Virus record (IMG/VR): IMGVR_UViG_3300010352_001565
Location: 1-51,054 of that record
DNA from: a virus
DNA: 51,054 bases
Reading direction: 5' to 3' (one strand)
Below are positions 1,406-50,584 of this stretch, piece after piece (the stretch's first letter is position 1; each line of letters begins with the position of its first letter). A model generated the notes under the pieces. It worked only from the letters and a program-made list of their open reading frames with translations. It made no database searches and was not told the origin of the DNA. A program made the translations under genes and the position numbers.

Positions 1406-1465
1406 AAATAAATTTACACTTTTTTGCAAAAAAGTGTTTACTTTATATTCACGTACGGTTAGATT
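1406..1465 (+). promoter_or_regulatory. T4-early-type promoter region: AAATAAAT upstream element, a 22-bp perfect palindrome, a GTTTAC -35 at 1436-1441 and TAGATT at 1460-1465.
   Basis: It shares the AAATAAAT-(T)TTACA head with the promoters at 14281, 28492 and 35614. ACACTTTTTTGCAAAAAAGTGT at 1416-1437 is a perfect inverted repeat overlapping the -35. Confidence 0.45.
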
Positions 1466-10714: not shown

Positions 10715-10754
10715 GCGCCGCAGAATAGCCGATAACAATTCACAGGCCCTCGGA

Positions 10755-10782
10755 AACGAGGGCCTTTTTTGTTATCATTTTC
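10755..10782 (+). terminator. Rho-independent terminator after the MCP gene
   Basis: GGCCCTCG-gaaa-CGAGGGCC followed by TTTTTTG. Confidence 0.85.
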
Positions 10783-10796
10783 GTGTTCTATCCCGT

Positions 10797-11198: not shown

Positions 11199-11297
11199 TT
11201 AGAGCGTGAAACGGCATCCATTAGCAGACTTCTTGGACGGAGATCCATTCAGGCGGCAATGGACAAGAAAATGGCTGAGTACGCGGGTTCGCAATAG

Positions 11298-11744
11298 ATG
11301 ACAGCTAGCGCAATAATCGAAGCTCTCGTTCCTGACAAAGGAAGCGTCCTTAAGATGAACGACGATGGCTTGTTCGAGCCATGCGCAGTCCAGGTATCTC
11401 AAGGTCCTGAGCGCGTTATCGCCGTAGCGACCCAGATGGCCGGAGTTACCCTGCTTGGAAGGCCGTCTGACATCCACGCAACCCTTTCTGAAGGATACTG
11501 GGACTTTCTTGAGCAGACAGACCCAGAAGGTTTTGCCAAACTCCAGGTCAACTTTGAGTGGGCGCACCACGGCTGGTTCACCAACAAAGGTCGTTTTGTC
11601 GACAACGAAGAAGCTGCAAAGCTGCACAACACAGACGTCGATGCCTTCGCAGAAGAAAATCGCGAAAATACCATCCTTCACCCAGAACACTCTGACTACC
11701 GCTTCGAGTACGGACCCGGAGGCAAGCTTCGTCGGAAGCGCTAG
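11298..11744 (+). CDS. Hypothetical acidic protein
   Basis: 148-aa ORF. It was chosen over the overlapping antisense ORF 11199..11690 because its composition is more protein-like. Confidence 0.35.
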   Translation: MTASAIIEALVPDKGSVLKMNDDGLFEPCAVQVSQGPERVIAVATQMAGVTLLGRPSDIHATLSEGYWDFLEQTDPEGFAKLQVNFEWAHHGWFTNKGRFVDNEEAAKLHNTDVDAFAEENRENTILHPEHSDYRFEYGPGGKLRRKR

Positions 11745-11751
11745 TTAGCAT

Positions 11752-13020
11752 ATGCGCAGCTTGCGTGCCTTAAGGGGACCTCTTATGAAGAGTCCCGCGA
11801 TGATCGACCCTAGCGGAGTCGTGTATTCTGGAGAAGCCGTCTGGGACGCTCTTGACAAGAACCCCGAACTCGCCGCTGAGATTGAGGATGCGGGTCTGTA
11901 CGGAAACTACCACGACGTCTTCGCGGCCGTCACTGGGAGGGACATCGATTCCTATTTGCGAGATGGGTGGATTAGGTGGGCAGTTGGAGATCCGAGCAAA
12001 GACGAGGTATTTGTTCAGAGCTCACAAATCTCGCACCGGCAGCGGGCAGTTCTTGACCAATTCGCAGAAGATAACCCGTCTGTGAAGGTGACTTTCATCG
12101 GCTTGGTTCGAGAAGGGTGCGACGACACTTCAAAGCTTGGACTACCTCCAGAAGCTCGGACCTTCTCTAAGCTCAACTCCAGGAATGGAGGATTGGGTCC
12201 TAGGAAGCCCAAGGCCTACATTGACATGGTTGCAGCCATCACCAATCAAAAGAGCCGTAAGCATGGTTTCTGCAACAAGGATGGTGGCCAGAAGGTTCAG
12301 CATGCAATAAAAGAGTCCTTGGGATACATTGGAATGTTCTCAGGAGGAGGAATGGTCGTTCACGCCATTACAGCGGAGCAGGTTGACGACCATTCGTATG
12401 ACCACAGCGATGTTGGAAAAGCACTTGGAGCTACTGGACGATTCCGCTACAACCCCAACAGACCCGATGTTGTCGTGTGGAGCGACGAGCCGTCTAAGGA
12501 GCAGATGGAGGAAGTTGAAGACTTTCTGGCGCGGCGAGGGTTTAATCCATCAAAGCACAAAGTGTGGGCATGGGCCGACGGTGGACAAACACGGATTATT
12601 TCTAAAGAAGGTTCCCAAGATAGTTATGGCATGAATAATGAGTCTCTCGCAAGCAAACTGGTTGAGGAATTGATTGGAGACGAAAACGGGAAAAGCGGAA
12701 TTGAGATCGACGCCTTTATCCAGGAGCTGAGATCTGGAGGGTACGACCCTGAGCACGTTCGCGAGATGATCTCCGCGGCAACCAGCGCAAAGCGCTTGCT
12801 TGGCGGAGGCATTCAAGTCGTCACCAGCAACGAGCTTCAGGGAGCGGACATGATGGAGATGCTTGACCAGCTCGAAGCCCGCAGCGATCGCGCTGAAGCC
12901 GGCCAAGGTTTCGAGCGCGTCTTCCAATCTGGAGGAGCCCCATTCGCGCTTGAGTACATCACTCAGGGTGAGGACAACTTCACTGTTGTTTTCTTCACGA
13001 CCGCAGATCACCAGAAGTAA
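11752..13020 (+). CDS. Hypothetical protein (422 aa)
   Basis: Long ORF with balanced composition and no recognised motif. Confidence 0.45.
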   Translation: MRSLRALRGPLMKSPAMIDPSGVVYSGEAVWDALDKNPELAAEIEDAGLYGNYHDVFAAVTGRDIDSYLRDGWIRWAVGDPSKDEVFVQSSQISHRQRAVLDQFAEDNPSVKVTFIGLVREGCDDTSKLGLPPEARTFSKLNSRNGGLGPRKPKAYIDMVAAITNQKSRKHGFCNKDGGQKVQHAIKESLGYIGMFSGGGMVVHAITAEQVDDHSYDHSDVGKALGATGRFRYNPNRPDVVVWSDEPSKEQMEEVEDFLARRGFNPSKHKVWAWADGGQTRIISKEGSQDSYGMNNESLASKLVEELIGDENGKSGIEIDAFIQELRSGGYDPEHVREMISAATSAKRLLGGGIQVVTSNELQGADMMEMLDQLEARSDRAEAGQGFERVFQSGGAPFALEYITQGEDNFTVVFFTTADHQK

Positions 13021-13748
13021 ACCGGGGTGTCGTCAGCCTGGAACTTATTGCCGACGAACCACCCCCGTTCTGGATCAGGCCCTGGTATGGGTTTCCCGTT
13101 GGCACGGTTGAATGTGTCGTGGGCAAAGTGGTCATTTTTGAAGTGGCTTTCCCAGAAGGTGTCAAGGAAGTTGAAGTCTCCCCAAAATGCGTCTTGCTTC
13201 CAATCTTTAAGCCTCTGCTCAAACTCTGGAATGCGGTTGCACAAAGCACCCCACATCCCAGCCATGATGTGCTGAACGTGGTTTGGGTGGTCTCGCATGA
13301 CGTGGTAAGTCTTTCCAGACGCCAGCCACTCGCGCACAGCTTCAGCCTCTCTTTTTGTCAAGCGAGCGTCAGCGTCGCGTACTATCGCCACGCTGACTGA
13401 CGGATCAAACAAAGGCTCGAAGCGCCAGCGCATCCCTGAGCAGTCCACGTTGTCTGGCTTAATGATGATCTCTGCTCCAGAGTCGGAGAGTGCCTTCACA
13501 ACGCACTCAGGCACAGTTGAATCGACGTAAAACCGGCAGACAAAATTTGGATAGACGCTCTTTGCCAGCTCTGCGTTTTTAAGCGCGCCAACGGTGTACA
13601 TTGGCGCGCTTCCCCACAGGCTGTATGAAATGACCGACTTCACAGGGTTGAAAACGGGATTGCGTGGCCGGTGTACCCAGGCGCACTCCAGTAGCACGAT
13701 CCATTTAGCCTTGCGCGGCGTCCTCCGCTGCGATGGTAGTGATGACAC
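13008..13748 (-). CDS. Putative nucleotide-sugar transferase-like protein. The GTG start sits directly after an in-frame TAG.
   Basis: ISYSLWGSAPMY..CRFYVDSTVPECV..DADAR segments resemble GT-A type transferases. It overlaps the upstream ORF by 109 nt in the -1 frame. Confidence 0.35.
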   Translation of the reverse strand: MSSLPSQRRTPRKAKWIVLLECAWVHRPRNPVFNPVKSVISYSLWGSAPMYTVGALKNAELAKSVYPNFVCRFYVDSTVPECVVKALSDSGAEIIIKPDNVDCSGMRWRFEPLFDPSVSVAIVRDADARLTKREAEAVREWLASGKTYHVMRDHPNHVQHIMAGMWGALCNRIPEFEQRLKDWKQDAFWGDFNFLDTFWESHFKNDHFAHDTFNRANGKPIPGPDPERGWFVGNKFQADDTPVYFW

Positions 13749-14269
13749 CTAACAGAGTGGCAAGGGTTGCTCACGGTTAAACCTGCTTCTACGGCTTTTT
13801 GCGCCAGATAGGTGTCGCATCCGTCAATTCCAAGTATGATGTCATCTTGCATTTTGCAGATGGGAGCTTTGAACACCCACGTGTCTTGCGACCACTGATT
13901 TTGAAGCTGGCCATCTTCATTTACACGAGTGATGCAAAACAGATGGTTGTCCCAGCGGCTCGGAGGAAGCGACGCTAGCAGCTCCATTGTGCTGTCGTAC
14001 TTGATGTCTGTATTTGAAACCACGACGAACTCTCCGAGCAATGACTTATTGGCGAATTCGAAGTAGGCTCCGTATGTGGGACGGTCACTGACGCTAACAA
14101 ACTCCAGCTTCGGGTGCTCAATAGGTGGGAGGTACCCCCTCTCGCAGAAAATAAAGACGCGGCTGAAAAATGGCTGGTCAAGATTGTGCTTGATGCAGTG
14201 CACCAGCTCTTCTTCGCGCGGTTCATTCTTGAAAAACGTGGTCAGCAAGATCATGAGTTGGTAGAACAA
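13640..14269 (-). CDS. Hypothetical protein, possible glycosyltransferase N-terminal module
   Basis: FFKNEPREEELVHCIKHNL...VSNTDIKY...GIDGCDTY. The last ~36 residues look like out-of-frame readthrough. Confidence 0.35.
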   Translation of the reverse strand: MFYQLMILLTTFFKNEPREEELVHCIKHNLDQPFFSRVFIFCERGYLPPIEHPKLEFVSVSDRPTYGAYFEFANKSLLGEFVVVSNTDIKYDSTMELLASLPPSRWDNHLFCITRVNEDGQLQNQWSQDTWVFKAPICKMQDDIILGIDGCDTYLAQKAVEAGLTVSNPCHSVRCHHYHRSGGRRARLNGSCYWSAPGYTGHAIPFSTL

Positions 14270-14280
14270 AAAATAGTTGC

Positions 14281-14317
14281 AAATAAATGTTTACAAATTT
14301 CCGTTTCGTGATATAGT
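14281..14317 (+). promoter_or_regulatory. T4-early-type promoter: AAATAAAT upstream element, GTTTACA -35 (14289-14295), 16-nt spacer, TATAGT -10 (14312-14317), ATG 6 nt downstream
   Basis: Read directly. It is near-identical to the module at 28455-28492 (minus strand). A 7-bp inverted repeat GTAGAAC/GTTCTAC flanks it. Confidence 0.55.
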
Positions 14318-14323
14318 TCTACC

Positions 14324-14698
14324 ATGATTACGAACGAAACAGTTACCAGAGACAACATCGATAACGAAAGCTTCTACAACGTGGTTCAGCTTTGCAATAT
14401 CACTGGTTATGCTGATCCTGTGGCTGCTCTCAAATCCACTGGTGAGACTGTTCGCGTAACGCGAGACAACGGAGGAAACATTACTGGCGGCGAGCTGATC
14501 AGAAAGAGCGGCAACGAAAGCGCGAGAAACCTGTTCCGCTACATTCCTTCTCACAACGAATACTCCACGGTTGACGAAGCTGCCGCTGGAATGGAGAAAA
14601 CAGATACTGCTGTTGAGCAGCTTGTCAATGGAAAGTGGGTTCATTTTCGCACTCTTACCGCCCAGGACCACGCCGACGCCGCTTGGATGCAGGAATAA
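14324..14698 (+). CDS. Hypothetical early protein
   Basis: ORF starting 6 nt after the promoter -10. Confidence 0.45.
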   Translation: MITNETVTRDNIDNESFYNVVQLCNITGYADPVAALKSTGETVRVTRDNGGNITGGELIRKSGNESARNLFRYIPSHNEYSTVDEAAAGMEKTDTAVEQLVNGKWVHFRTLTAQDHADAAWMQE

Positions 14699-14704
14699 TC
14701 GCAT

Positions 14705-14983
14705 ATGGTTAACAAAAAGCGTTTACACTCTGCGCGTTCGCGCTATATTAGCGGTATGAATACTGTTCCTAAAATTGACTTATCCGAGCTTGAGGCTGCG
14801 GTAAGCGTCATGCAGGAAGGGACTTCAATCGAAGAGCCGATGACGAATTTCAGCCTCGAGGTGATCCACGAAGGTTTACTTCGCTTGACATCAAACGTCA
14901 CCAAGAGAGTGATTAACCTCCCGCTGACGGGGCGCTGCCCAATGTCAGTGATGGCGGGATTCGCAAAACGCCAAATGGCATAG
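14705..14983 (+). CDS. Hypothetical protein
   Basis: 92-aa ORF in an operon-like array. Confidence 0.4.
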   Translation: MVNKKRLHSARSRYISGMNTVPKIDLSELEAAVSVMQEGTSIEEPMTNFSLEVIHEGLLRLTSNVTKRVINLPLTGRCPMSVMAGFAKRQMA

Positions 14984-14990
14984 TTAAATC

Positions 14991-15488
14991 ATGAATATTG
15001 GAGATCGAATAGAGTTTAACGGGCGCGGTGAGACGATCCGTGGCACTGTCACCGATACTAAGCTCAGGCGCACCGGGTCGAGAAACCCGCTGGTTAAAGC
15101 TTACGGTCTCCAAGTTCCAGGCCAACGCGTGCTGATCATCATGTCAGACGACGGAAAGGTCTGGAACGTTCCTGAACGCATGGCCAAAAAGATCGGAACA
15201 GCAAGCGCTGCCGATCAGCAGACTGCGCGGTCTGGCGCTGCAGATCTCATAAGCAAGTACGTCAGAGCGAAAAATGATCGCAACAACGTGCGCAAAGATT
15301 CTGCGTACAATTCTGGTTTTTACAGCATGAACAAAGGCGATGACATCGAGATCCAGTTCCGCGGCGGAATGTGGAGACCGATGAAGTTCTCGCACCTAAC
15401 TGGAAGCGGCCAGGTCGGATTCTACGATCCCACTTTCCCGTCGCGTGTGCGATTCACGCCAGCTCAGTTTGCCAGAAAGCCGCAGTAA
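14991..15488 (+). CDS. Hypothetical protein
   Basis: 165-aa ORF with no recognised motif. Confidence 0.4.
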   Translation: MNIGDRIEFNGRGETIRGTVTDTKLRRTGSRNPLVKAYGLQVPGQRVLIIMSDDGKVWNVPERMAKKIGTASAADQQTARSGAADLISKYVRAKNDRNNVRKDSAYNSGFYSMNKGDDIEIQFRGGMWRPMKFSHLTGSGQVGFYDPTFPSRVRFTPAQFARKPQ

Positions 15489-15749
15489 AATGGTGTTCTT
15501 ATTGTCGTCAGCGGCGGTCAACAAAACCTGTGGCGACAATTCAACATCTTTTGAATTTTAAGCTGGTAATCACGCCAGCGGGTGACCATATACTGGGCGC
15601 AGCCCGCCCGTTTAAGTGGGACTACGGTTAGCTGTGGTAGGGCTTCGCCCGAAACGATAACATTTATCGCTGAAGGCGCGGTGAGTCATCCCATCGCGCC
15701 TTTTAATTTTGCCGAGCAGCATAATCCACTGCTTGTTTCAAAAAGAGAA
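15489..15749 (+). ncRNA. Candidate structured non-coding RNA or leader. It has several GC-rich hairpins and ends at a terminator.
   Basis: Hairpins GCTGG-taatcac-CCAGC, GGGCG-cagc-CCGCCC and GGCGCG-N14-CGCGCC. There is no plausible ORF. The track ORF 15582..16328 runs through the terminator, so its N-terminus is spurious. Confidence 0.25.
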
Positions 15750-15780
15750 AGGCCCGGAGCGAAAGCTCCGGGCCTTTTTG
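15750..15780 (+). terminator. Rho-independent terminator
   Basis: GGCCCGGAGC-gaaa-GCTCCGGGCC followed by TTTTTG. Confidence 0.85.
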
Positions 15781-15791
15781 GTAGTTACGCC

Positions 15792-16328
15792 ATGCAAGCA
15801 GTTATAGGCGGGCACAATTTCGGAGTGAGAGCAGCGATCGTGATGCTGTTCACTACGCCCATTGCGGAACCGGGAAGGCAAACAGCTGGGAATCCTCCGA
15901 GTAACCCGCCTGTCGCCACGGTCTCCAACGTTGGAGATTCACTCAAGTATCTTTTCTCGAGCCCAAACGGGGCATTCACCAGGAACATCTACGTTGACCC
16001 GAGTGGAGAGATTGTTGATGAAGTGGTCGACAACACTGATTTCAGCAGCAAAATCATCCTGGATGACCTGAGGTTGTTTTTCGTATCTCCTAATGGCCTA
16101 TACCTCAGAGTGCTTGGGGTCGCAGACGACGGCACCCCAACTGACTGCGTTATTGATGCTCCTGTCTTGCACGCGACAACCGATGCGCTTAAAATTCAGA
16201 ATTTGATCCGACAGTGCTTCGCCGTTCCAGGTGAAAGCAACTACCTTCACATAGGGGTCGACGACCTAGGAGACCCTTTCAACACCATCGAACCTTTCAG
16301 GGTAGCGCAGCAGCCCGTGTCATCTTAG
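15792..16328 (+). CDS. Hypothetical protein with an N-terminal hydrophobic segment. The start was reassigned to the ATG after the terminator.
   Basis: MQAVIGGHNFGVRAAIVMLFTTPIA. The upstream in-frame region contains the terminator. Confidence 0.45.
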   Translation: MQAVIGGHNFGVRAAIVMLFTTPIAEPGRQTAGNPPSNPPVATVSNVGDSLKYLFSSPNGAFTRNIYVDPSGEIVDEVVDNTDFSSKIILDDLRLFFVSPNGLYLRVLGVADDGTPTDCVIDAPVLHATTDALKIQNLIRQCFAVPGESNYLHIGVDDLGDPFNTIEPFRVAQQPVSS

Positions 16329-16332
16329 TTTT

Positions 16333-17805: not shown

Positions 17806-18272
17806 AAGCTGTTGTAATCGCTGTTGCTCTCTCCGCCGTCCAAGCTATCGCTCAGGACGGCGGGGGTGTTTTAAAGAGGCCATTCGTATACCACCACCCG
17901 GACCCTCTTCGTTACTACGCACCGTTTGACATGCCGTTTCCGGCTGAGCATGTCGAGAAGTTCATGGATGCCAGCCGAACGAATGCGCTTGCATTCTGGA
18001 AAATTTTGCAGACGGACGACGTCAAGAAGATCCACGAGATGGCGCAGGCGCAGCTGACAGCGCACTTTCAGCTGATTGACCAGATGCACTTCTATCCGAG
18101 CCGCGATCTTTCGTGGCACGTCTGCTGCTCTCCTTCTTGCGAGTCAAATGGTTGCCCGTTCGTGTTCGATCTCGACAACATACGGCCAGGATACGCTGAC
18201 ACCTTCAAGTTCTGGTGCGACCACAGGACGGATACCAACACCGTCGTGATTGGTCCGAAGCCGTCGCAATAG
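17802..18272 (+). CDS. Secreted Cys-rich protein with a signal peptide
   Basis: MKAVVIAVALSAVQAIAQD N-terminus, then a Cys-rich C-terminus (CCSPSCESNGCPF..WCDH). Confidence 0.45.
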   Translation: MKAVVIAVALSAVQAIAQDGGGVLKRPFVYHHPDPLRYYAPFDMPFPAEHVEKFMDASRTNALAFWKILQTDDVKKIHEMAQAQLTAHFQLIDQMHFYPSRDLSWHVCCSPSCESNGCPFVFDLDNIRPGYADTFKFWCDHRTDTNTVVIGPKPSQ

Positions 18273-18279
18273 TTAGCGC

Positions 18280-20835
18280 GTGAGCCAAGCTACCATTTTG
18301 GAGGACACGCTGAAGAGTCTCGGCGGCGTCCATGCATCGATTGAGCGGTCGCACGCTGAGTCTGACCAGCTCGGGAAGTCTTGGTCCATTCTCTCCACCA
18401 TCACAAACGCTGTGTCTGTCGGCGCCACTGGGTGGCTGCTGAGCATGTCGGGCGTAGGGCGCCACGTCAAATCCATCTATCACGAGCTCAAAGAAGTGTC
18501 GCAGATGAAGGACTTGATTGACATCGGCAACGCAGACGAGCGCCTGGCGACCCTGTCAGAGTCCCTCGCATATCTCTCTGAGAAGGGGCTCAAAGATGGA
18601 AACGCCCAGTACGACCTAGCAAAGAAGCAGGTTAAGATGGCAGAGCTTGAGCTTCAGCAGATCAAGTGGAAAAATGAAGCTCGCAAGGAGTACGTTGAGC
18701 TCGGAAAGATTGAGGTCAAATGGCTGGTGCTTGCTGGAACGACCATTGCTGGGATGCTTTCCACGTCTCGGACTCTGAACGAGTCTCTGATTCATGCGAA
18801 CTCATCCATCGCAGCAAGATACGACCTTCTCACCAAGATTTACAAGGTTCAATCCGAAACCGGAGCCTCAACCAGAGAGATGTCTGTAGTTGCGCATGCG
18901 CTGACCGAGTACGGCATTGACCTCAACAGCAACTTTGCTGACAGCGCGAAACTAGTCTATCAGATGAACTCGGGGCTTGGAGTAAGCGTCCAGCACGGGG
19001 CGGAGCTAGTCAGCGCTTTCCAGCGTCTTGGAGTCGACGTTAGGAGCGTCGGCGATGGCATTGCAAGAGTAACTGCTGATACAGCTCTTAGCGCGGATGA
19101 AGCCTCGCGGTTTTCAATTAACATCGCTCGCGCGCTTTCGACGATGCGCACTGGAATGGGTAAAGGATCTAGTGAGGTTGCTGAGTTTTTAAACCGCATC
19201 GAAGGCCAGCTCAAATCTGCCACTGGCGTGACTGGCGAGCTTACAGCAATGTACACCAGGATGACCACGACCCTGGATGGCGCTGGCGTCGCTCACATGC
19301 TTGGCATCAAAAACATCGAAAGCCTCGGTGGAAAAGACGGCGCTGAGCGCATGACAAAAGCTTTGCGGAGTCTGGTTGACAACACTTTGCGCGGTCTCGG
19401 TGGAGATGCGCGCTTGAGCGCTCTTGAAAGTCTGTCTGAAATGACTGGAATGAGCACCCTTGCGCTTTCATCACTGAGCACAGCGATGGACGACGCAAGT
19501 AAGAAGATGGGCTCAAGGACGACCATTGAGCAGGCGTGGAAAAACCAGCTGGTAACGACAGGAGAAGCGGTAAACTCAATGATCGGGTCTTTGCGCTTTT
19601 TAGCCATTAAAGTTGTCCAGCCTCTTCTACTTCCGATTCAGATGCTATCAAAGGCGGCTGCTTCACTCATAGGAACTGTTTCAAAGATTCCAGGAATCAC
19701 AGTCGCTCTTCAAGGCCTTGCGCTGATGGCCATACCATACCTCATTAAGCAGGTTTACTCTCTGACTACAAGCCTTATTTTTCTAGCCAGAGCTGCAGCT
19801 ATGGCTGCTAAAAGCGCTGCTGCGGCCGCCGCTTCTCAAGCAACTGAGGGAACGCTTGAGCGCGGATCAGGAATTTTTGACGCCATTAAAGACATCATCG
19901 GGAACAAAGGCGGATCTCCTGGAAGAGGGACTCCGGGACCTGGACCCGCTGGTTTTGGATACGGAGGCGTGGTTACCAGAGCAGGAAGCGCTGCAGCAGC
20001 TGCAACATCAATGGAACGCCTGACCTCCGCCTTCACTAAGGGATACGAGTTTCAGAAGCTCCTTATGGTCGCAAGATTTGAGAATCTCAGATCGATGGTT
20101 GCGATGAGCAAAGCGTACCAGTGGGGAGCATCTGCCGTTACTGCCGCAAGCGGGGCGATCGGGAGAATTCCGACGCTGTTTGGAAAGGCGGCTTCGTCTG
20201 GTGTTTCATCCCTAGCAATGCGCATGCTTCTCCCTATGATGGGAGGCCTTGGAGCGGTAGCTGGAGCGGCTGTTCCAGTCATTATTGGGGCTGTTGCCGC
20301 CTACGGCCTGTACAAAATTGCAAACGCTGCTCTGGGTGGAAAGCTTGACAACTGGCAACAGAAGTTCTTTTCCAGCTTCATGGCTCAGAAGAAGGATTAC
20401 ACGAAGCAGGACGCCTTTACTACGGACGTCAAGAGAATGGTCCGCACAAAGACAGAGCAGGGCGCCTCTGCAAGCGAGATCCGCGACGCCATTGAGAAGG
20501 AAAAGAAGATTGGAAAGCTGAAAGGCCTATCCGATATTGACGTCGCCATTGCAATTGGAAAAGGAATGCGCGAGCGCGAAAGCCTGCTGACAGCCAAGCT
20601 CACAAAAGCACAGCTTAACCTTGGAACTGGACAGAGCGACCAGAAGACTGCTGAGTACCTGAAGAAGCAGCTTGAAGTGAACGAAGAGATTGCTGAGTCT
20701 CTCCGAGTCATGGTGTCTACCGCCAGAAAAGAAGCTCAGGAGAACGAGAAGCGCGAGAATGCTCGCGACAACGAAGCCATAATCCGATCTCTTGGAAATC
20801 ACATCGGGTGGGCTCCAGTTCCAGTAGGACACTAA
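18280..20835 (+). CDS. Tail tape-measure-like protein (851 aa)
   Basis: Long alpha-helical, Ala-rich protein with internal hydrophobic segments and a Gly-rich patch. Assigned to the tail by composition only; no direct gene-order support. Confidence 0.45.
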   Translation: MSQATILEDTLKSLGGVHASIERSHAESDQLGKSWSILSTITNAVSVGATGWLLSMSGVGRHVKSIYHELKEVSQMKDLIDIGNADERLATLSESLAYLSEKGLKDGNAQYDLAKKQVKMAELELQQIKWKNEARKEYVELGKIEVKWLVLAGTTIAGMLSTSRTLNESLIHANSSIAARYDLLTKIYKVQSETGASTREMSVVAHALTEYGIDLNSNFADSAKLVYQMNSGLGVSVQHGAELVSAFQRLGVDVRSVGDGIARVTADTALSADEASRFSINIARALSTMRTGMGKGSSEVAEFLNRIEGQLKSATGVTGELTAMYTRMTTTLDGAGVAHMLGIKNIESLGGKDGAERMTKALRSLVDNTLRGLGGDARLSALESLSEMTGMSTLALSSLSTAMDDASKKMGSRTTIEQAWKNQLVTTGEAVNSMIGSLRFLAIKVVQPLLLPIQMLSKAAASLIGTVSKIPGITVALQGLALMAIPYLIKQVYSLTTSLIFLARAAAMAAKSAAAAAASQATEGTLERGSGIFDAIKDIIGNKGGSPGRGTPGPGPAGFGYGGVVTRAGSAAAAATSMERLTSAFTKGYEFQKLLMVARFENLRSMVAMSKAYQWGASAVTAASGAIGRIPTLFGKAASSGVSSLAMRMLLPMMGGLGAVAGAAVPVIIGAVAAYGLYKIANAALGGKLDNWQQKFFSSFMAQKKDYTKQDAFTTDVKRMVRTKTEQGASASEIRDAIEKEKKIGKLKGLSDIDVAIAIGKGMRERESLLTAKLTKAQLNLGTGQSDQKTAEYLKKQLEVNEEIAESLRVMVSTARKEAQENEKRENARDNEAIIRSLGNHIGWAPVPVGH

Positions 20836-20836
20836 C

Positions 20837-26261: not shown

Positions 26262-27548
26262 CTACCCGCGTGAAGGATCGCGAACTTCGCGAGAGGTCGG
26301 ACCGATCGTAGACGACCCCACAGCCAGAAGGCTGATTTGCTGCCCTTGCGCCTCGTTCGCGCTAGAAACTATATTCGTGTTACCGGCATCTCGCATAGCC
26401 TGTTGGCTAGCGCGATTCGTCTGAAGCTCACCTCGATGCAGGGTGAAGGCGCTAACGAGGTCTCCCTTGTCGATGACATGCGTGGACTGAGATACACTGT
26501 AATATCCAGCCCACGAAGTGTCGGCGCCACTCTTACCAAGCTTGATGTCGATGAAGTCGTTAATGCGGAGAAGCGGGGTTTTTGTGGTCTTGAGCTCAAG
26601 AGAATACATCGCTGATCTCTGCTGCTCATATTTGTTTTGGATGATGTTTTCTCCCTCAACAGCCCCATTTTCACCCACGTGGTACGAGAAAATGCGGTCG
26701 TACTCTTGAGGGATTTCCGGGGCTGAGTTCCCGATCTTTAGGACTCGTGAACTGTCAGATCGAACAGCTTGGGTCTCTCCCGTCATCGGGTTGTGAGCAA
26801 CCATCCTGACAACAGCCCCAGCCGCCCCATCCTCGCATTGCACCTGTGAGCGGTCGCTCTGAATCAGCGACAGGCTGTTAGTTGGACCAAAGTACGACAG
26901 CTCCTTGAGCTCGGATTGGTAATCTGGAGAGTGGAAATGAAGCACGCTGTCCTTCACGTACAGCCTGAAGTTCCCGCGTCCTTTTTCGTTCACCGCTCTT
27001 GAGATGCACCTGTCGACAATGAAAGTGAAGTCGGAGATCCGAGGCTGAACGAGGCTAAATTTTCCGATGGTTGGCTCGACAATCGCTTCGATCTGGTGTT
27101 CGGCGGCGATCGCCTTGACCATGTCGCTAATCAGCCCCTGCCGCGAAACAATCTTGTGCGCTCGGCTGATCTTCCATAACGGGTCAGCTGTGCATATTTT
27201 GACGTGGTGGGTCCCGTTACCGTATGGGATGGCTGAAAATTCCGTAATGAAATGGCGCTGCCACGGAAGCCATTGCATGGCGCGTGGTGTTCCAATCCCA
27301 AACCTGATCTTGCACTCAGGCTCACCAGACGACATTGCTGGTTGGACTACTCTGATGACTTCCTCGTCACTTGAGGCAAGGATGGTGACTGACTCGGACC
27401 ATGCATTGATCCGTTCCTTGATAGTAGTAGTGCAATGGTCAGCAGTTCCGCGTACGTCGACGACAGACTGCTGACCATTGACGGTTACTCCGATTTGAAA
27501 GATGCACTGAGCGTTCCCGCTGTTCGCAATGGTCGTTGATGTCGGCAC
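26262..27548 (-). CDS. Baseplate hub protein, P2 gpD / T4 gp27-like
   Basis: LISDMVKAIAAEHQIEAIVEPTIGKFSLVQPRISDFTFIVDRCISRAVNEKGRGNFRLYVKD parallels P2 gpD LGAIVKAIATRNRLEARVAPSLAGIKIPHIDQSQESDAKFLTRLAERNGGEVSVKMGKLLFLK. Confidence 0.5.
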   Translation of the reverse strand: MPTSTTIANSGNAQCIFQIGVTVNGQQSVVDVRGTADHCTTTIKERINAWSESVTILASSDEEVIRVVQPAMSSGEPECKIRFGIGTPRAMQWLPWQRHFITEFSAIPYGNGTHHVKICTADPLWKISRAHKIVSRQGLISDMVKAIAAEHQIEAIVEPTIGKFSLVQPRISDFTFIVDRCISRAVNEKGRGNFRLYVKDSVLHFHSPDYQSELKELSYFGPTNSLSLIQSDRSQVQCEDGAAGAVVRMVAHNPMTGETQAVRSDSSRVLKIGNSAPEIPQEYDRIFSYHVGENGAVEGENIIQNKYEQQRSAMYSLELKTTKTPLLRINDFIDIKLGKSGADTSWAGYYSVSQSTHVIDKGDLVSAFTLHRGELQTNRASQQAMRDAGNTNIVSSANEAQGQQISLLAVGSSTIGPTSREVRDPSRG

Positions 27549-27561
27549 TTCCTAACTAGCG

Positions 27562-28280: not shown

Positions 28281-28448
28281 TTAAAAAGAAGAGTTGCCAC
28301 TTTGAACGACCCGAACAAGCAGAGCGCTGCTCCAACTGAGGCTATCAGCGCACCAGCAGAATCCGGTGAGAGATAGAAGCACAAGCGATAGTATTACAGT
28401 GAAATAGTCGTCGAGTTTATCCACGACGTTGCATTTGTTCGCGTTCAT
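28281..28448 (-). CDS. Small membrane protein (55 aa), first gene after the promoter
   Basis: ATG 7 nt downstream of the TATAGT -10. Hydrophobic core FTVILSLVLLSLTGFCWC. The TAA stop is 5 nt before the MCAIIG start. It is below the 60-aa ORF-track cutoff. Confidence 0.4.
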   Translation of the reverse strand: MNANKCNVVDKLDDYFTVILSLVLLSLTGFCWCADSLSWSSALLVRVVQSGNSSF

Positions 28449-28454
28449 ATCAAT

Positions 28455-28492
28455 ACTATATCACGAAACAAGAATTTGTAAACATTTATTTT
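28455..28492 (-). promoter_or_regulatory. T4-early-type promoter (minus strand): AAATAAAT, TGTTTACA, 16-nt spacer, TATAGT
   Basis: Minus-strand reading AAATAAATGTTTACAAATTCTTGTTTCGTGATATAGT. It differs from the 14281-14317 module at only 3 positions. Confidence 0.55.
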
Positions 28493-29231: not shown

Positions 29232-29400
29232 TTGTAGTTATCGCGTGCGATTTCAAGAACGTAAAGATTTTCTTTCGAACCCAGATGTTTTTGGGTTGCA
29301 AGATACTCAGACAGCCCTGAGAATCTACAACGAGTGGTGCGTACGCCACTCTGCGAATCCACGCCCAAAGTTTCTTGAAGTTGACCGCAGCGCATCAAGA

Positions 29401-35537: not shown

Positions 35538-35574
35538 ATGTTTGTTTAGCTGCGAACAGCATAAGTTTCATCAG

Positions 35575-35614
35575 CACTATAGCATGCGAATAAAACTTTG
35601 TAAACATTTATTTG
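35575..35614 (-). promoter_or_regulatory. T4-early-type promoter (minus): AAATAAATGTTTACA, 17-nt spacer, TATAGT
   Basis: Minus-strand reading AAATAAATGTTTACAAAGTTTTATTCGCATGCTATAGT. Confidence 0.5.
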
Positions 35615-38957: not shown

Positions 38958-39458
38958 TTATGGTTGGCCGTCAGACGGAGCCCGACCGCCAGTTGGATCT
39001 TGAGGGTCAAGCTCGTAAGCAAGCTTGTACCAGTACATTTCGCAGGTTGACGGACCCCATTCAGCAAACGGAGAAAGGCATCCGCTACGAGGATCTGGGT
39101 CTTCGATCATGGCGATGGCAATTCCGTCATTTTTGCCCTCTTCACCTTCTTCTTCAACCTCTGCGTTAGCGAATGCACCTTTGATGCTCTTGTCATCCGG
39201 AATGACGTAGATGGAGTGGCCTGTAAAGCCTTGAGATTCGACCTGTTCGATCGTTCCGTGGACGTCCTTGAATCCTGGAGTGAGCCCGTCAGCGTACTGA
39301 GTGAGGACTATCCGCTGACCTTCTTTAAGACCCTTGAATTGCTCAGGAGTCAGACCACCGTTGGCCATTACATCTTGAACATTGTCTGCTTTCGGTGGTT
39401 CGTTCTCGCCGAGAAGTTTCTCGACGAGCTGCTCAGCCTTCTTTTCGTTTTGTTTCAT
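38958..39458 (-). CDS. Acidic early protein; start reassigned to MKQNEKK
   Basis: The ATG lies 6 nt after the TATATT -10 of the promoter at 39465-39495. The first 7 residues of the track ORF fall inside the promoter. Confidence 0.5.
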   Translation of the reverse strand: MKQNEKKAEQLVEKLLGENEPPKADNVQDVMANGGLTPEQFKGLKEGQRIVLTQYADGLTPGFKDVHGTIEQVESQGFTGHSIYVIPDDKSIKGAFANAEVEEEGEEGKNDGIAIAMIEDPDPRSGCLSPFAEWGPSTCEMYWYKLAYELDPQDPTGGRAPSDGQP

Positions 39459-39464
39459 ACGAAT

Positions 39465-39495
39465 AATATAGCACAGATTCAAAAATCTGTAAACA
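39465..39495 (-). promoter_or_regulatory. T4-early-type promoter (minus): GTTTACA, 17-nt spacer, TATATT
   Basis: Minus-strand reading AAGTGTTTACAGATTTTTGAATCTGTGCTATATT. Confidence 0.5.
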
Positions 39496-39854: not shown

Positions 39855-40595
39855 TTAGATTCCGGCTTCGCGCTCGATCTTTCGAATATGAGCTTCGCCT
39901 GGAAGGACAGCGGAAATCGAGCCCCAGTCTTCGCCGTCATTCTTGTAAAAGTAGCCGGATTTAGCTTTTCCGCGCTTTAAAAGACCACGCATTCTTCCGT
40001 TCGCGTGGCTGTCGCCATGAGGGCGATACTCGCTATTGCTCATCTTACCGACGATCTCAAGCTCAAAGATGTCAGGCTTCGAATCGAGAGGAATTGGCTG
40101 GCCGTTTGAGAACGTGGCGGGCTTGTACTCTCCAGGATAGAAGTCATCCTCTGGAAACGGAGACCCGAACCCGCAGTTGAACCCTGTTGGTCGTATCCCT
40201 CTTTTTTGAAGAGTCCTTTTGCCGCACAAGAGAGTCTTGCCGTACTCTCGAGTGCCGTCCCAGACTCCGCTCACAGGATAGCCGATAGTGGCAGTGAGCG
40301 CCTCGTAAGCAGCAAGGTGGGTTCCAACGTGAAGTCCGGTGGCGCCTCCCCTGAGATCTCCACTTGCAGTCCCATGCCAGTACGCCTCGATGAGGCTCTC
40401 GCATTGCTTCGAATCCACCCCCGCCATAATAGCGTTGGCAAACCAACCAATCATGGTTCCTTCATCTGAAGGAATGGAGGGGTTCTTTTTGATGCAGCTG
40501 CAGAATTCTTTTGCCCACACAACGGCGTCTGTCGTTTGGGGTATTGGCTTTCCGTCTTGGCCAACAAGCTGCTCAATTGCCTGCTTCGCGTTCAC
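39855..40595 (-). CDS. Hypothetical protein (246 aa)
   Basis: Well-formed ORF with no motif I can name confidently. Confidence 0.45.
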   Translation of the reverse strand: MNAKQAIEQLVGQDGKPIPQTTDAVVWAKEFCSCIKKNPSIPSDEGTMIGWFANAIMAGVDSKQCESLIEAYWHGTASGDLRGGATGLHVGTHLAAYEALTATIGYPVSGVWDGTREYGKTLLCGKRTLQKRGIRPTGFNCGFGSPFPEDDFYPGEYKPATFSNGQPIPLDSKPDIFELEIVGKMSNSEYRPHGDSHANGRMRGLLKRGKAKSGYFYKNDGEDWGSISAVLPGEAHIRKIEREAGI

Positions 40596-40601
40596 GGCTA
40601 A

Positions 40602-41144
40602 CTAGCATCTGATACTCCACGACCAGACAGGCGAGAAATCGTCAGACTTGTTGATGCCCACATAGGTCTTGCGGGCGATGAGAGTTTCGTTTCCAGAGAA
40701 GAGTCCCATTTCCTTAATGAGATAGCCGTTGGCTTCACCAGCCCCAATTGAAAACTCCACGCGGGAAACGAATGGGCGCGGCCAGTCAACGCCGTCGATC
40801 TCCTTGAGATAAACCTCCTGGCCTTCGACGAACGAAATCGGGCTTTCAAGACCGACATCAGTGACTTTCGGGGCGGTTGTTCCAGTACCGACGCCGAATT
40901 TGGCGCAGACGTAGTCAGATGTCGGATTCTTGCCACCAAACAGGTAACTGAGCATCTGGCGGCCTTGGTCGACAAACAGGTTGGATCCAAGCACTATCTC
41001 TCCGTCACGCACATCCCAGCCTCGGCGAGAGGTGGAGCAGCGCGAATCTAGGAGCCAGCCAAATTTGATTGCTTTTTCAAGCGGAACGTTCTTCCCGTTG
41101 GAAGAGTCAACGAGTCGCATCGTAACAAAGCCTTTGATATTCAT
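40602..41144 (-). CDS. Hypothetical protein
   Basis: 180-aa ORF. Confidence 0.4.
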   Translation of the reverse strand: MNIKGFVTMRLVDSSNGKNVPLEKAIKFGWLLDSRCSTSRRGWDVRDGEIVLGSNLFVDQGRQMLSYLFGGKNPTSDYVCAKFGVGTGTTAPKVTDVGLESPISFVEGQEVYLKEIDGVDWPRPFVSRVEFSIGAGEANGYLIKEMGLFSGNETLIARKTYVGINKSDDFSPVWSWSIRC

Positions 41145-41199
41145 GTCGTGATAACTATCGATCTCAGTTTATGTTCGTTGCCAATGCGAAACTTTCATT

Positions 41200-41229
41200 G
41201 TTTACATTTCAGCGCTTGTGCTGTACATT
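41200..41229 (+). promoter_or_regulatory. T4-early-type promoter: GTTTACA, 17-nt spacer, TACATT, ATG 6 nt downstream
   Basis: ATTGTTTACATTTCAGCGCTTGTGCTGTACATT, then gacagt ATG. Confidence 0.5.
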
Positions 41230-41235
41230 GACAGT

Positions 41236-41637
41236 ATGAAGAACTCCTTGATGTTATCAGTCTTGCTAGCGCTGTTGTGCGGGTGCACCATTGCCCCTGT
41301 CAGGTACCCTCCTTCGTCATTTCAGCCCACATCCGAGGGAAAGACTAGCCCTCCTTTCATGCGCGGAGATCTCGTGGTCCTGAAGACTCAAGAGGTCAAT
41401 TACCCTGGAAGTGCGCGCGGCCAGGTGGTCTGTGGCTACTGGGATCCGATGTTTTGCACTTGGCGGTATCAGGTAAAATTTCCGAGAGGAGCGTGGGGAG
41501 ACTTCTACCCATACTTTGCGGGAATCCGTCAGTCGTACTACTACGAAAACTACTACGACTTCGACGTCTGGGTTTGTGGATACGAGCTTCTTCGCGTTGA
41601 CGAGCCGCGAGCGGTTACTTTTCCGTTGAGTAGGTAA
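41236..41637 (+). CDS. Putative lipoprotein expressed from an early-type promoter
   Basis: MKNSLMLSVLLALLCGC is signal-peptide-like with Cys at the cleavage region. Start moved from the track's GTG at 41218 to the ATG. Confidence 0.45.
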   Translation: MKNSLMLSVLLALLCGCTIAPVRYPPSSFQPTSEGKTSPPFMRGDLVVLKTQEVNYPGSARGQVVCGYWDPMFCTWRYQVKFPRGAWGDFYPYFAGIRQSYYYENYYDFDVWVCGYELLRVDEPRAVTFPLSR

Positions 41638-42850: not shown

Positions 42851-43923
42851 ACAAAAGTAAATCCTGTAGCAGGGTCTATGGTTAAGGTGTGTGCTCCAGC
42901 TTGAATTATGATTGGAACTGGAGTAGGGCCAGATTTTATCGTGACTCCGGCCGGAGTGGTCTGGACAGTCAGCTGTGATCCTAGCGCTGATCCTACCGTA
43001 AATCCAGCGGTGTCAAAATTGATGGAGTTGCACATGAACGTAACGCTGCTCAGCCCCGTGTTATCCACGGTGATAGAAGCACCGGGAAGCCCGGTGGTTA
43101 ATGGCGCGGCGTAAAGCACTACCTTCTGACCGTCAACGCTCACGTACGACCCAGTAGACGCAGAGATCGCTCCAGCTCCATCTCCAAGCGCAATGGCTCC
43201 GCCTCCGCTGTCTGTCACTGCAAATTTTCCATTTTTCAGCGACAGCGTGGAGCATTCTTCGTCACCAGAGAAAATTGAAAAACCCTTGCCTGCCTGTAGG
43301 ATGTAGTCCTCATCAATAATAAGGGCCATGTCCTTCGTCGTGTAGGTGATCGCGACATCGGCCGAGAACCGCATCCTCTTTATCGCCTCAAAATCAAAGT
43401 CGTTAGCAAGCACCACCCACTGCTCACCGATGTTGTAGGTCAGGTCCTCGTTAATGTGGAGAAGACCACCGTTGCACTTGTCATCCAGCATCCAGGCGTT
43501 TCCTTTCGCCGAGATTTCAAGGATTGACTCGCTGTTAAACTCGATGGTGTGGCCATACCTGGTCAGCGCAGCGCGCTTAGGAAGCCCTGTCTTTTCATCA
43601 TGCTGGTGCAGCTTAAGATTCTCAGTTCCCGCAATGGTTTGATTACCCCACTCCCAGATTGGCTTCTCTGGCTCAAGATTCAAAAACCTGACGTACACTT
43701 GGTCGCCAGGTTCTGGGAGCCAGGAGATACCACCGGATGCAGGAGAGTTGCCAGCGGGCATGCCGACAGGAAGCGCCCATGGAATGTCCTTGGTGCTGAC
43801 AGACCCGAAATCGCTCTTGGACGGGCCATAGATGTGCGGAACACGGACCTTGAGCCGACCCATCTTCAACGGATCGGCGTTATCTTCAACAGTACCAATA
43901 AATGTCCCGCTTAGCTGACTCAC
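42847..43923 (-). CDS. Baseplate central spike, P2 gpV / T4 gp5 N-domain-like, with a C-terminal beta-helix-like extension
   Basis: GTVEDNADPLKMGRLKVRVP...WLPEPGDQVYVRFLNLEPEKPIWEWG fits the Phage_base_V OB-fold pattern G.V..dp...GRvrVr.p...W..P..G..V.V.F..Gd...P...G. Confidence 0.7.
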   Translation of the reverse strand: MSQLSGTFIGTVEDNADPLKMGRLKVRVPHIYGPSKSDFGSVSTKDIPWALPVGMPAGNSPASGGISWLPEPGDQVYVRFLNLEPEKPIWEWGNQTIAGTENLKLHQHDEKTGLPKRAALTRYGHTIEFNSESILEISAKGNAWMLDDKCNGGLLHINEDLTYNIGEQWVVLANDFDFEAIKRMRFSADVAITYTTKDMALIIDEDYILQAGKGFSIFSGDEECSTLSLKNGKFAVTDSGGGAIALGDGAGAISASTGSYVSVDGQKVVLYAAPLTTGLPGASITVDNTGLSSVTFMCNSINFDTAGFTVGSALGSQLTVQTTPAGVTIKSGPTPVPIIIQAGAHTLTIDPATGFTFV

Positions 43924-43961
43924 GCCGTAACTACCGTCCGTAGTTATAGCACGAAAGGCCT

Positions 43962-47484: not shown

Positions 47485-47496
47485 GGTAGTTATGGC

Positions 47497-47697
47497 ATGG
47501 ACAACAGCTTATACGATCGCATCGCAACCGCGCAGAAGTTCCAGCAGGGAGAACAAGGCAAGACTGGATCTCCCGACGCTGAAAAACTCGCTTTTGGCAT
47601 GGGGGTTGTTAAAAACATGCAAGATAAAACGCATGAGAGGAACAGCATCCCGCAGAGTGAAGTGGTCGCACGTCCTGCGTATCCCATTCCGAATTAA
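47497..47697 (+). CDS. Small hypothetical protein (66 aa) in the gap between the primase and gp47-like genes
   Basis: Hydrophilic ORF on the strand opposite its neighbours. An antisense 65-aa ORF is also possible. Confidence 0.2.
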   Translation: MDNSLYDRIATAQKFQQGEQGKTGSPDAEKLAFGMGVVKNMQDKTHERNSIPQSEVVARPAYPIPN

Positions 47698-49523: not shown

Positions 49524-49743
49524 TCAGACTTCTTGTCTTACTCCGAAGAGTTCTTACTTCATGGAAACTTAATTCGTGCAAGTAAGAGCTTACGCATTAG
49601 AGCTGAACGGCGCACCAGCCTGCACCGTCAGCATTGAGACTCCAAGGTGGCTTCCCGTTCGACCGCGGGTTAACGCCACTTGGCTGCGAGGAGTCGTGCA
49701 GATTGCTCTAACACGCTGCTTTAAGACAAGGAGTAGTTAACTC

Positions 49744-50151
49744 GTGAACGCAAACCAAGCCGCACAGTTTTTGATTGAAGGTGACGACGAGAACTACGAC
49801 GCAAAAGTCTTTGCTGATCGTCTTCTTCTTCGCATTTACTCGGCGCCGTCGCTGCTGGCGTATCTCCATGACATTGCTATGATTAAGGAGAGCGACGAGG
49901 GGAAGAGCGGAGTCATTTTCCAGATCAAGTTCTCGAAGCTTCCTGAAGAAACCATCTCTCAGGTTAAAGACTTGATCGGAGTCCCTGGAATCAGGGCGCT
50001 TGCCTTTGACGAGGAACGCAAGCCTTGCACGGGATTTCAGTTTTTCATTTCTGACGAGCAGCTAAGTGCTTCGAAGTCTGAGAAGCAGCGCCCGAATACG
50101 CGAGGCGAAGGATTTGGTCAGACAGGACGTCAGCAACCGGCCCTAGGTTGA
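49744..50151 (+). CDS. Hypothetical protein (GTG start after an AAGGAG RBS)
   Basis: AAGGAGTAGTTAACTCGTG context. It overlaps the convergent 50045..50353 ORF by about 100 nt. Confidence 0.35.
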   Translation: MNANQAAQFLIEGDDENYDAKVFADRLLLRIYSAPSLLAYLHDIAMIKESDEGKSGVIFQIKFSKLPEETISQVKDLIGVPGIRALAFDEERKPCTGFQFFISDEQLSASKSEKQRPNTRGEGFGQTGRQQPALG

Positions 50152-50353: not shown

Positions 50354-50368
50354 ACCCAATCGGAGTAG

Positions 50369-50584
50369 TTAACTGGTGAGCCCGTTTACCACGGGATCGC
50401 GCTTACGGTCGGCTGGATTCAGGTAGACCAGGCGGCCAGCAAGAAAGTCAATAACAAGCTTACGTGCAAACTGATTGCCAGACCGGATACCGATGATCTT
50501 AGGTTCAACAGCTTTAGTCTCTAAATTGGATGCGAGGTTATCTGGGATTCGGAAGGCAACAACTCGCTCTTTTGTATTGTCCAT
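50369..50584 (-). CDS. Ribbon-helix-helix (CopG/Arc-like) DNA-binding protein
   Basis: N-terminus MDNTKERVVAFRIPDNLASNLETKA fits an RHH beta-strand plus helix. Confidence 0.4.
   Translation of the reverse strand: MDNTKERVVAFRIPDNLASNLETKAVEPKIIGIRSGNQFARKLVIDFLAGRLVYLNPADRKRDPVVNGLTS

Follow-up and report, generated by a model that had tools for sequence, protein, structure and literature searches.

In phages, leaderless mRNAs are known for lambda cI, transcribed from PRM, and for middle and late genes of the Thermus phages phiYS40 and P23-45; the early mRNAs of T4 carry leaders that contain a Shine-Dalgarno (SD) sequence. T4 early promoters have GTTTAC at -36 to -31, an A-rich tract, a TGn element, and a -10 element with A-11 and T-7 (PMC1524935, PMC2988021), and promoters of this type typically serve small ORFan genes in variable regions (PMC1524935). 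The late promoters of the T4 family have an 8-bp TATAAATA box in the -10 region and no -35 element (PMC2988020). Among bacteria, leaderless genes that stand first in their operons in Actinobacteria and Deinococcus-Thermus have a Pribnow box 6 to 8 nucleotides (nt) before the start codon and no ribosome-binding site (GeneMarkS-2 group C; PMC6028130). Here we describe a family of GTTTACA promoters of the T4 early type in a 51,054-nt stretch of viral DNA (IMG/VR record IMGVR_UViG_3300010352_001565, positions 1 to 51,054; the whole stretch is called the window below). Six of these promoters abut a start codon, a geometry that suggests leaderless transcripts, and a second motif, TAGTTA, stands before many other gene starts. 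Judged from its sequence, the phage is an uncultured myovirus of ~223 kb with T4-like core genes, distant from T4. What we put forward as new is the probable leaderless use of T4-early-type promoters in a T4-related phage, together with an undescribed TAGTTA promoter-like motif; T4-type early promoters and leaderless mRNAs were themselves already known.

Promoters that abut start codons

The promoter at 14281-14326 reads AAATAAAT-GTTTACA-AATTTCCGTTTCG-TGA-TATAGT-TCTACC-ATG on the plus strand. It comprises an A/T-rich, UP-like tract (14262..14288) that ends in AAATAAAT and holds 80% A+T in the 25 nt before the -35 element; a -35 element, GTTTACA (14289..14295), whose TTTACA agrees with TTGACA at 5/6 positions; and an extended -10 element (14309..14317), TGa followed by TATAGT. 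Six nucleotides further on stands the ATG of a 124-amino-acid (aa) ORFan (14324..14698), the A at 14324 being the predicted transcription start. The arrangement is repeated: TTTACA-N16-17-TANNNT-N6-ATG has 5 matches versus 0.01 expected, with ATGs at 14324, 14756, 28448 (minus strand), 39458 (minus strand), and 41236, and a sixth start-abutting site has 4 nt between its -10 element and the ATG at 35571 (minus strand). The looser pattern GTTTAC-N15-19-TANNNT occurs 10 times versus 0.47 expected. An independent sigma-70 consensus scan of 10001-30000 ranked sites at 28482, 14290, and 14722 at the top, each with 10/12 matches and two of them with TGn.

The start-abutting sites share one layout: an A-rich UP-like tract, GTTTACA, a spacer of 16 to 17 nt, and a -10 element of TATAGT, TATATT, or TACATT. 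On the plus strand, the second promoter (14721..14758) has GTTTACA, a 16-nt spacer, TATATT, and 6 nt before the ATG at 14756, and the one at 41200..41238 reads GTTTACA-N17-TACATT, 6 nt from the ATG at 41236. On the minus strand lie AAATAAAT-GTTTACA-N16(TGa)-TATAGT, 6 nt from ATG 28448 (28446..28491); AAATAAAT-GTTTACA-N17(TGc)-TATAGT, 4 nt from ATG 35571 (35569..35613); and GTTTACA-N17(TGc)-TATATT, 6 nt from ATG 39458 (39456..39494). A canonical TGn is present in 4/6 sites; there is none at 14722, and at 41201 the TG directly abuts the hexamer and is not a canonical TGn. Across sites, the 25 nt before the -35 element are 52 to 80% A+T versus 47% for the genome, with the tract usually ending in AAATAAATG or AAAAAGTG directly before the -35 element, and GTTTAC lies 35 to 36 nt upstream of the predicted start base in all six. 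In every testable sequence feature the family resembles T4 early promoters, and the reading of GTTTAC as a T4-early-type -35 element in a preliminary description of the window holds at this level (position, A-rich tract, TGn, and -10 element).

Transcription starts in 49 bacterial species are centered 7 bp past the -10 element, with a conserved Y-1 R+1 Y+2 start triplet (PMC12641261). With six intervening bases, the seventh base past the -10 element is the A of the ATG at five of our sites; the A and T of the ATG fill R+1 and Y+2, and the preceding base is C or T in 5/6 sites. Since the modal start base and the first base of the ATG coincide, the sites are best read as sources of leaderless mRNAs, and we assign a probability of about 0.72 to transcripts of the GTTTACA family starting at the start codon. 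The same reading, leaderless or near leaderless, had been offered in the preliminary description and gains support from the spacing, the pyrimidine before the ATG, the reading frames, the absence of SD sequences, the relatives, and the contrast with other IMG/VR sequences. We assume that a host sigma factor recognizes these promoters. Host-type RNA polymerase would start at the A of the ATG and produce an mRNA with a 5'-terminal AUG, which the ribosome would recognize directly; such recognition would be needed because there is no room for an SD sequence and none is present. The genes behind these promoters are small ORFans located in variable regions, as is usual for early genes that host polymerase transcribes in its unmodified form, and downstream operon genes could be translated by coupling with the preceding gene. 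From this layout we infer that the elements act as promoters, which base is transcribed first, how the ribosome binds, and when the genes are expressed, which by analogy with T4 would be early.

Fusion of promoter and start codon recurs in relatives of the phage, by which we mean 59 IMG/VR contigs of up to 238 kb whose capsid proteins are 62 to 77% identical to its own. Among their sigma-70-like sites (TTTACA or TTGACA, N16-18, and a good -10 element), 17/33 have an ATG opening an open reading frame (ORF) 6 to 11 nt past the -10 element. As a control, we scanned IMG/VR for TGTTTACA-N13-14-TGNTATAGT with the downstream sequence unconstrained. The scan gave 99 unique sites, most of them on contigs of low GC content; the first start of an ORF is found 26 to 50 nt past the -10 element in 43/99 and 4 to 8 nt past it in 7/99. 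Because the contrast between these general IMG/VR sites and both our phage (6/9) and its relatives (17/33) is significant (Fisher test, 6e-5 and 1e-7, respectively), we conclude that the promoter type is widespread and that what distinguishes this clade is the fusion of the promoter to the start codon.

It could be argued that the promoters are real but that the starts are mis-assigned or transcription begins elsewhere, so that the mRNAs have ordinary leaders and the adjacent ATGs are incidental. Three family members clearly have leaders, one ATG beside a -10 element (at 1470) is indeed spurious, and the ORFs at 35571 and 28448 are weak in coding score. However, incidental ATGs would have to fall at an exact 6-nt spacing five times (versus 0.01 expected), and this spacing recurs in relatives and not in unrelated phages with the same promoter. 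The frames argue in the same direction: the ATG frame is open for at least 30 codons at all six sites, while the other two frames are closed within 30 codons in 5/6. No SD sequence precedes the in-frame downstream start codons of these ORFs, and a signal peptide begins at 41236. We therefore regard mis-assigned starts as a highly unlikely explanation.

The ORFs themselves differ in quality. The codon-usage score of the ATG frame is positive at 5/6 sites; over whole ORFs, scores are good at 14324 (+38) and 39458 (+42), modest at 14756 and 41236, and poor at 28448 and 35571. Their first 35 nt are weakly folded (mean -2.3 versus -5.9 kcal/mol in random windows; P ~0.001). Public gene callers give the same 124-aa (14324) and 166-aa (39458) products, and the ORF at 14324 is the sole open frame for its first 30 codons. 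The second promoter is followed by a 75-aa ORF (14756-14983, plus strand). On the minus strand, the 166-aa ORFan (38958-39458) heads a tightly packed operon, and a 55-aa membrane-like ORF (28281-28448) is followed, 5 nt on, by a class-II glutamine amidotransferase gene (27562-28275). The 133-aa ORF with ATG 41236 (plus strand) begins MKNSLMLSVLLALLCGC, by its look (as read from the sequence) a lipoprotein-type signal peptide; because a signal peptide makes sense only at an N-terminus, this ATG is independently supported. The gene behind the ATG at 35571 (314 codons, minus strand, with a second in-frame ATG at 35562) is uncertain, since the ORF shows only low coding potential, unevenly spread along its length. 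No product of the promoter-abutting ORFs matched a Pfam or PHROG family, no relatives of the genes behind the promoters were found in IMG/VR, and the 166-aa product had no homologue among 5.8 billion proteins. Because these genes are ORFans, footprinting across orthologues is impossible.

Several observations on the family weigh against leaderless transcripts. Coding scores are low for the 55-aa ORF at 28448, coding potential is weak for the ORF that follows the 35605 promoter, and three family members have leaders (the 1437 site and two in the left flank). The first of these (1429..1465, plus strand) reads AAAAAGTG-TTTACT-N17-TAGATT, and its gene starts at ATG 1510, 44 nt past the -10 element. 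The other two emerged when the motif search was carried beyond the window, into a working sequence of 67.8 kb (the window plus 8.5 kb on the left and 8.2 kb on the right, recovered via look-ups of window proteins). That wider search did add two members to the family, but both have leaders, of 19 and 33 nt from -10 element to ATG. Since three members have leaders, the start-abutting design is frequent, not universal, in the family.

The list of sites itself needed revision. Of seven sites in the preliminary description, five stand: 14289-14317(+), 28455-28484(-), 35575-35606(-), 39465-39495(-), and 41200-41229(+). The site at 1436-1465(+) is a member of the family, but the ATG at 1470, 4 nt past its -10 element, begins an ORF of just 27 codons that is not in the frame of the 503-aa gene at 1510. 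The site at 29232-29270(-), with TTTACG, a 19-nt spacer, and TAACTA instead of TANNNT, does not belong. Conversely, the start-abutting site at 14721-14749(+), with ATG 14756, had been missed. The ATG was said to lie 6 to 7 nt past the -10 element in five copies; five sites in fact have 6 nt, and the one at 35571 has 4 nt. A GTTTAC at 49287 was not counted, as its spacer is 14 nt and it reads TATAGA. Around the 1436 promoter, a perfect 22-bp palindrome, ACACTTTTTTGCAAAAAAGTGT, at 1416-1437 overlaps the UP tract and the -35 element, and a tandem AAATTTTCGTC x2 at 1484-1505 lies in the SD-less leader of the 503-aa gene; either could be a binding site for a regulator.

Three of the copies share the 17-mer AAATAAATGTTTACAAA (in the 14289 promoter, at 28475-28491(-), and at 35597-35613(-)), and the copies at 14289 and 28483 are near-identical through the spacer (…GTTTCGTGATATAGT). 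This sharing (14270-14326, 28446-28502(-), and 35569-35624(-)) suggests recent duplication, cassette shuffling, or a shared spacer operator. An HNH homing endonuclease gene (28492-28953) adjoins one copy that carries AAATAAATGTTTACAAA. All family copies precede ORFans in variable regions, and the promoter-bearing region at 10.8-18 kb is absent from relatives. The repeats might on these grounds be a mobile or recombination-prone cassette, like the T4-type promoter-early stem-loop cassettes, and reflect recent duplication instead of selection for a leaderless design. The other copies, however, are alike only at functional positions and have unrelated spacers, and the ATG spacing is kept in diverged relatives with unrelated sequences and a TTGACA -35 element. 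We give very little credence to duplication as the explanation of the geometry; a cassette origin would in any case be compatible with promoter function.

Downstream of the first two promoters, a consensus and terminator scan (region 15672..15777, plus strand) found two strong intrinsic terminators, at 15672-15703 and 15748-15777, which are predicted to close the early transcription unit that starts at 14324/14756. Both lie in a 303-nt gap without a called gene (15489-15791), which could hold a small RNA or serve as a double stop that separates the early unit from the one that follows.

The TAGTTA motif at gene starts

A second motif, G-TAGTTA-N3-Y-RTG, places a different box before start codons. 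TAGTTA occurs 15 times in the window versus 6.0 expected; 13/15 copies lie within 12 nt of an ORF start, and 10 lie exactly 4 nt before ATG or GTG. With 11 matches in the window versus 0.17 expected, TAGTTA-N4-RTG is the top hexamer-and-spacing combination there and in the relatives. In the pooled set of 114 unique sites, the spacing between box and start codon has its mode at 4 nt (36 sites) and a tail at 5 to 9 nt (21 sites). The start codon is GTG in 21/36 of the N4 sites versus 1/21 at N5-9, where ATG makes up 20/21 (P = 5e-5), and it is preceded by a pyrimidine in 35/36 of the N4 sites versus 39/61 other genes (P = 1e-4). Where the start codon lies 5 to 12 nt past the box, the fifth base after TAGTTA is a purine in 19/22. 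Over 61 sites, no position between -45 and -2 carries more than 0.16 bit of information, conservation upstream is confined to the G at -1, and there is no -35 element. Furthermore, 7/114 sites lie 2 to 8 nt past a terminator hairpin with its T-run versus 1.1% of control positions; four of these seven have hairpins of -18 to -25 kcal/mol, and one is in the window (15748-15794). We lean toward TAGTTA being a phage-specific, possibly late promoter that, like the GTTTACA class, would start transcription at the first base of the ATG or GTG. The genes behind it include those for baseplate hub, tail-fibre-like, and tail-tube-like proteins. We found no published report of a TAGTTA promoter.

Within the window, several boxes overlap the end of the preceding gene. 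At 11742..11754(+), the TAG of TAGTTA-N4-ATG is the stop codon of 11298-11744 and the ATG opens a 422-aa gene; at 14981..14993(+), likewise before ATG, it is the stop codon of 14756-14983, upstream of a 165-aa gene; and at 18270..18282(+), before GTG, that of 17802-18272, upstream of an 851-aa gene conserved in relatives. A TAGTTA-N3-GTG at 40593..40604(-) uses the stop codon of 40602-41144 and precedes a 246-aa gene. Other boxes stand in different settings. The TAGTTA-N4-ATG at 15782..15794(+) begins 4 nt past the stem at 15748-15777, straight after the T-run, and precedes a 178-aa gene. At 12621..12633(+), TAGTTA-N4-ATG lies inside the gene at 11752-13020 and in frame with it, and may give rise to a nested 129-aa C-terminal product of this 422-aa gene. 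A TAGTTA-N7-ATG at 41142..41157(-) precedes a 180-aa tail-fibre-like gene and is divergent from the 41200 promoter. Back-to-back boxes on both strands (43921..43946) share a 38-bp divergent gap (43924-43961): on the minus strand, TAGTTA-N4-GTG (43921-43933) precedes the baseplate-hub gene with its start at 43923, and the plus-strand box is followed, after 15 nt, by the ATG (43962) of a tail-tube-like gene. A TAGTTA-N4-ATG at 47487..47499(+) stands before a 66-aa ORF, divergent from a primase-like gene.

The remaining N4 sites have GTG. One precedes a 428-aa gene (27546..27558, minus strand), another a 186-codon ORF in a region where the coding assignment is ambiguous (29235..29247, plus strand), and a third, preceded by AAGGAG, a 135-aa gene (49734..49746, plus strand). 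The eleventh match (50366..50378, plus strand), which lies outside the ten gene-start sites, is preceded by GGAG and followed by no ORF of at least 40 codons. The last two belong to near-identical copies of GGAG-TAGTTAACT-N-GTG at 49725-49746 and 50357-50378, and only at these two copies does a good SD-like GGAG sit 10 nt before a TAGTTA-linked GTG.

Not all evidence favors transcription starting at these codons. TAGTTA is the stop codon of the upstream co-directional gene in ~60% of the N4 sites, and a stop-restart or non-SD ribosome-binding signal therefore also fits. The 4 nt from TAGTTA to the start base are fewer than sigma-70 geometry allows, and a 5'-terminal GUG is a poor initiator in Escherichia coli. 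Moreover, no gp55-like late sigma factor was found, and no gp33 or clamp was recognized, among the proteins scanned in ~68 kb of the ~223 kb. These points bear on an alternative in which a non-SD "TA box" at -10 to -5 acts in translation or coupling and has TAGTTA as its strong version. The ribosome or a phage factor would read this box in the mRNA, or it would be read during termination-reinitiation; transcripts would then start further upstream, and the overlap with a -10 element would be secondary. Besides the stop-codon overlap, the spacing range of 3 to 9 nt is as for a ribosome-binding site, and over the full set of 81 gene starts T is the most frequent base at -10 and A at -9. Where non-SD motifs stand near all genes, as in genomes of GeneMarkS-2 group B, they are interpreted as ribosome-binding sites (PMC6028130). 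In the GTTTACA class, however, the box is the -10 element of a near-consensus promoter and would not be transcribed from that promoter. As for TAGTTA, 13/36 of the N4 sites have no upstream co-directional gene, and some boxes lie 2 to 8 nt past strong terminators or in the 38-bp divergent gap. The Y-1 R+1 pattern, the bias of GTG toward N4, and the purine at the fifth base all point to a transcription start rather than a translation start. On balance we consider a TA box read in the mRNA improbable as an account of the whole design; for TAGTTA taken alone, a stop-restart or non-SD ribosome-binding signal is the main rival to the promoter reading.

Translation signals, the phage, and its host

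Complementarity to the anti-SD sequence, measured 4 to 18 nt upstream of start codons, reaches -6 kcal/mol or lower in 11% of 81 genes versus 11.6% of 2000 random positions. SD sequences are not enriched across these 81 genes, internal operon genes included, which bears out the earlier remark that the late structural genes lack them: pairing upstream of genes is no better than at random positions. Genes are tightly packed, with 37/56 co-directional pairs overlapping or no more than 15 nt apart, so translational coupling is possible. The leader of the capsid gene (9201-9238) is G-poor, CA-rich, and without an SD sequence, as it is in ~50 relatives (e.g., L001, L003, and L049); the composition (as in AACAACAACAAACAACACAC) is kept while the sequence drifts. 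This suggests SD-independent initiation on an unstructured leader. It is conceivable, though we would not bet on it, that the whole clade expresses its genes essentially without ribosome-binding sites, with host-sigma and G-TAGTTA promoters firing at the start codon to give 5'-terminal AUG or GUG and the remaining genes served by coupling or by G-poor, CA-rich leaders.

Several starts chosen by public gene callers fall downstream of the ATG or GTG to which TAGTTA is linked. Pairs of longer and public-caller starts are 11752/11800, 43923/43863, and 40595/40454, and also 7692/7701. The call at 43863 for the baseplate hub cuts into a Pfam OB domain that starts at residue 9 when the protein is read from the GTG at 43923. 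In the case of the protease, the alignment with relatives begins at the first residue of the longer version. Standard gene callers thus appear to mis-place starts in such genomes.

Upstream of the capsid gene, the protease-scaffold frame of five relatives (L025, L027, L032, L045, and L053) contains an internal ATG (…AAGACTATGGAACTGAACGA…) ~900-1000 nt before the capsid gene. Preceded by a CA-rich stretch, it is a possible nested start of the scaffold; several short contigs begin ~40 nt before it. We considered whether short IMG/VR contigs that end just after the capsid gene are transcripts and rejected this: their 5' ends lie inside the variable protease-scaffold linker with no motif upstream, and look like assembly breaks.

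The window has a GC content of 53%. It encodes a T4-type major capsid protein (Gp23 family; 9239-10714), a prohead protease, tail sheath, baseplate hub, SbcC/Mre11-like nucleases, an RNase H-like exonuclease, a primase-like protein, and a GroES-like protein. The capsid protein is <30% identical to that of any cultured phage, and the window has no DNA match among 50,697 deposited phage genomes and no match to an Rfam family. The same phage is present at 100% identity in several public assemblies, all other public copies being 100% identical, and its proteins occur on contigs of up to 222,710 bp. Two assemblies of this phage differ by a single-base indel (L076 8219-8782 versus window 1-292) that causes a frameshift in a 187-aa gene spanning the left window edge; the indel is probably an assembly or strain difference. 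A search through RNase H-like and sheath proteins for extra early-region sequence of relatives found nothing.

One hint of a Gram-negative host is a lipopolysaccharide heptosyltransferase gene that lies in the left flank. We sought a further clue in tRNA genes, but there are none. The sole link to Flavobacteriales is one 3.8-kb contig binned with a Flavobacteriales metagenome-assembled genome, to which we give little weight because the promoters are of canonical sigma-70 type. By inspection, the signals here and in relatives are not of the Bacteroidota type (-33 TTTG / -7 TAnnTTTG and the TAAAAA ribosome-binding site). Promoters in both read TTTACA or TTGACA, N16-17, TANNNT, and the start-codon box is TAGTTA and not A-rich, whereas an A-rich (TAAAAA) non-SD ribosome-binding site is the Bacteroidota-type signal (PMC6028130).

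Implications and comparison with known systems

If confirmed, these results would describe a T4-related lineage in which leaderless mRNAs are the rule and arise from two promoter classes of differing geometry. They would also supply compact, portable elements for leaderless initiation, one fusing UP tract, -35, TGn, and -10 elements to ATG and the other a 7-bp box to ATG or GTG, and a candidate late-promoter consensus for an abundant group of environmental phages. Should the whole clade indeed dispense with SD sequences, the phage could translate on after disabling SD-dependent initiation in its host; alternatively, the host lineage may be unusually efficient in leaderless and GUG-initiated translation. 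This raises the question of whether SD-independent translation is favored by the phage or by the host.

Compared with T4 early promoters, the GTTTACA family is alike in the position of GTTTAC, the A-rich upstream tract, TGn, the A-11/T-7 -10 element, and the small novel ORFs in variable regions that it serves. It differs in that the ATG lies 6 nt past the -10 element, with no leader and no SD sequence. The phage also differs from T4 itself in its capsid protein, with its low identity to those of cultured phages, and in its GC content. We found no literature report of leaderless mRNAs in T4-related phages. The TAGTTA class resembles T4 late promoters in having a short box in the -10 region and no -35 element, in occurring on either strand and before structural genes, and in often lying over a preceding stop codon. 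Its box, G-TAGTTA, is nevertheless a different one, the T4-family box TATAAATA occurring 0 times in the window; moreover, the T4 late box ends 5 nt before the transcription start, while TAGTTA ends 4 nt before the presumed start base, which is also the start codon.

Among bacteria, the closest parallel is GeneMarkS-2 group C, which our sites resemble in having a -10 box 6 nt (five sites) or 4 nt (one site) before the start codon and no SD sequence. Unlike those of group C, the promoters here have a strong -35 element and an UP tract, and whereas internal operon genes in group C genomes keep strong SD sites, SD sequences are without enrichment anywhere here. In mycobacteria, GTG as well as ATG reportedly serves as a 5'-terminal start codon, and the TAGTTA class likewise has GTG besides ATG. 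Among phages, lambda has a single such gene, and the Thermus phages are not T4-like and infect a lineage rich in leaderless genes. In contrast to both, host-type and phage-specific promoter classes here appear to use the start-codon design across a jumbo phage clade.

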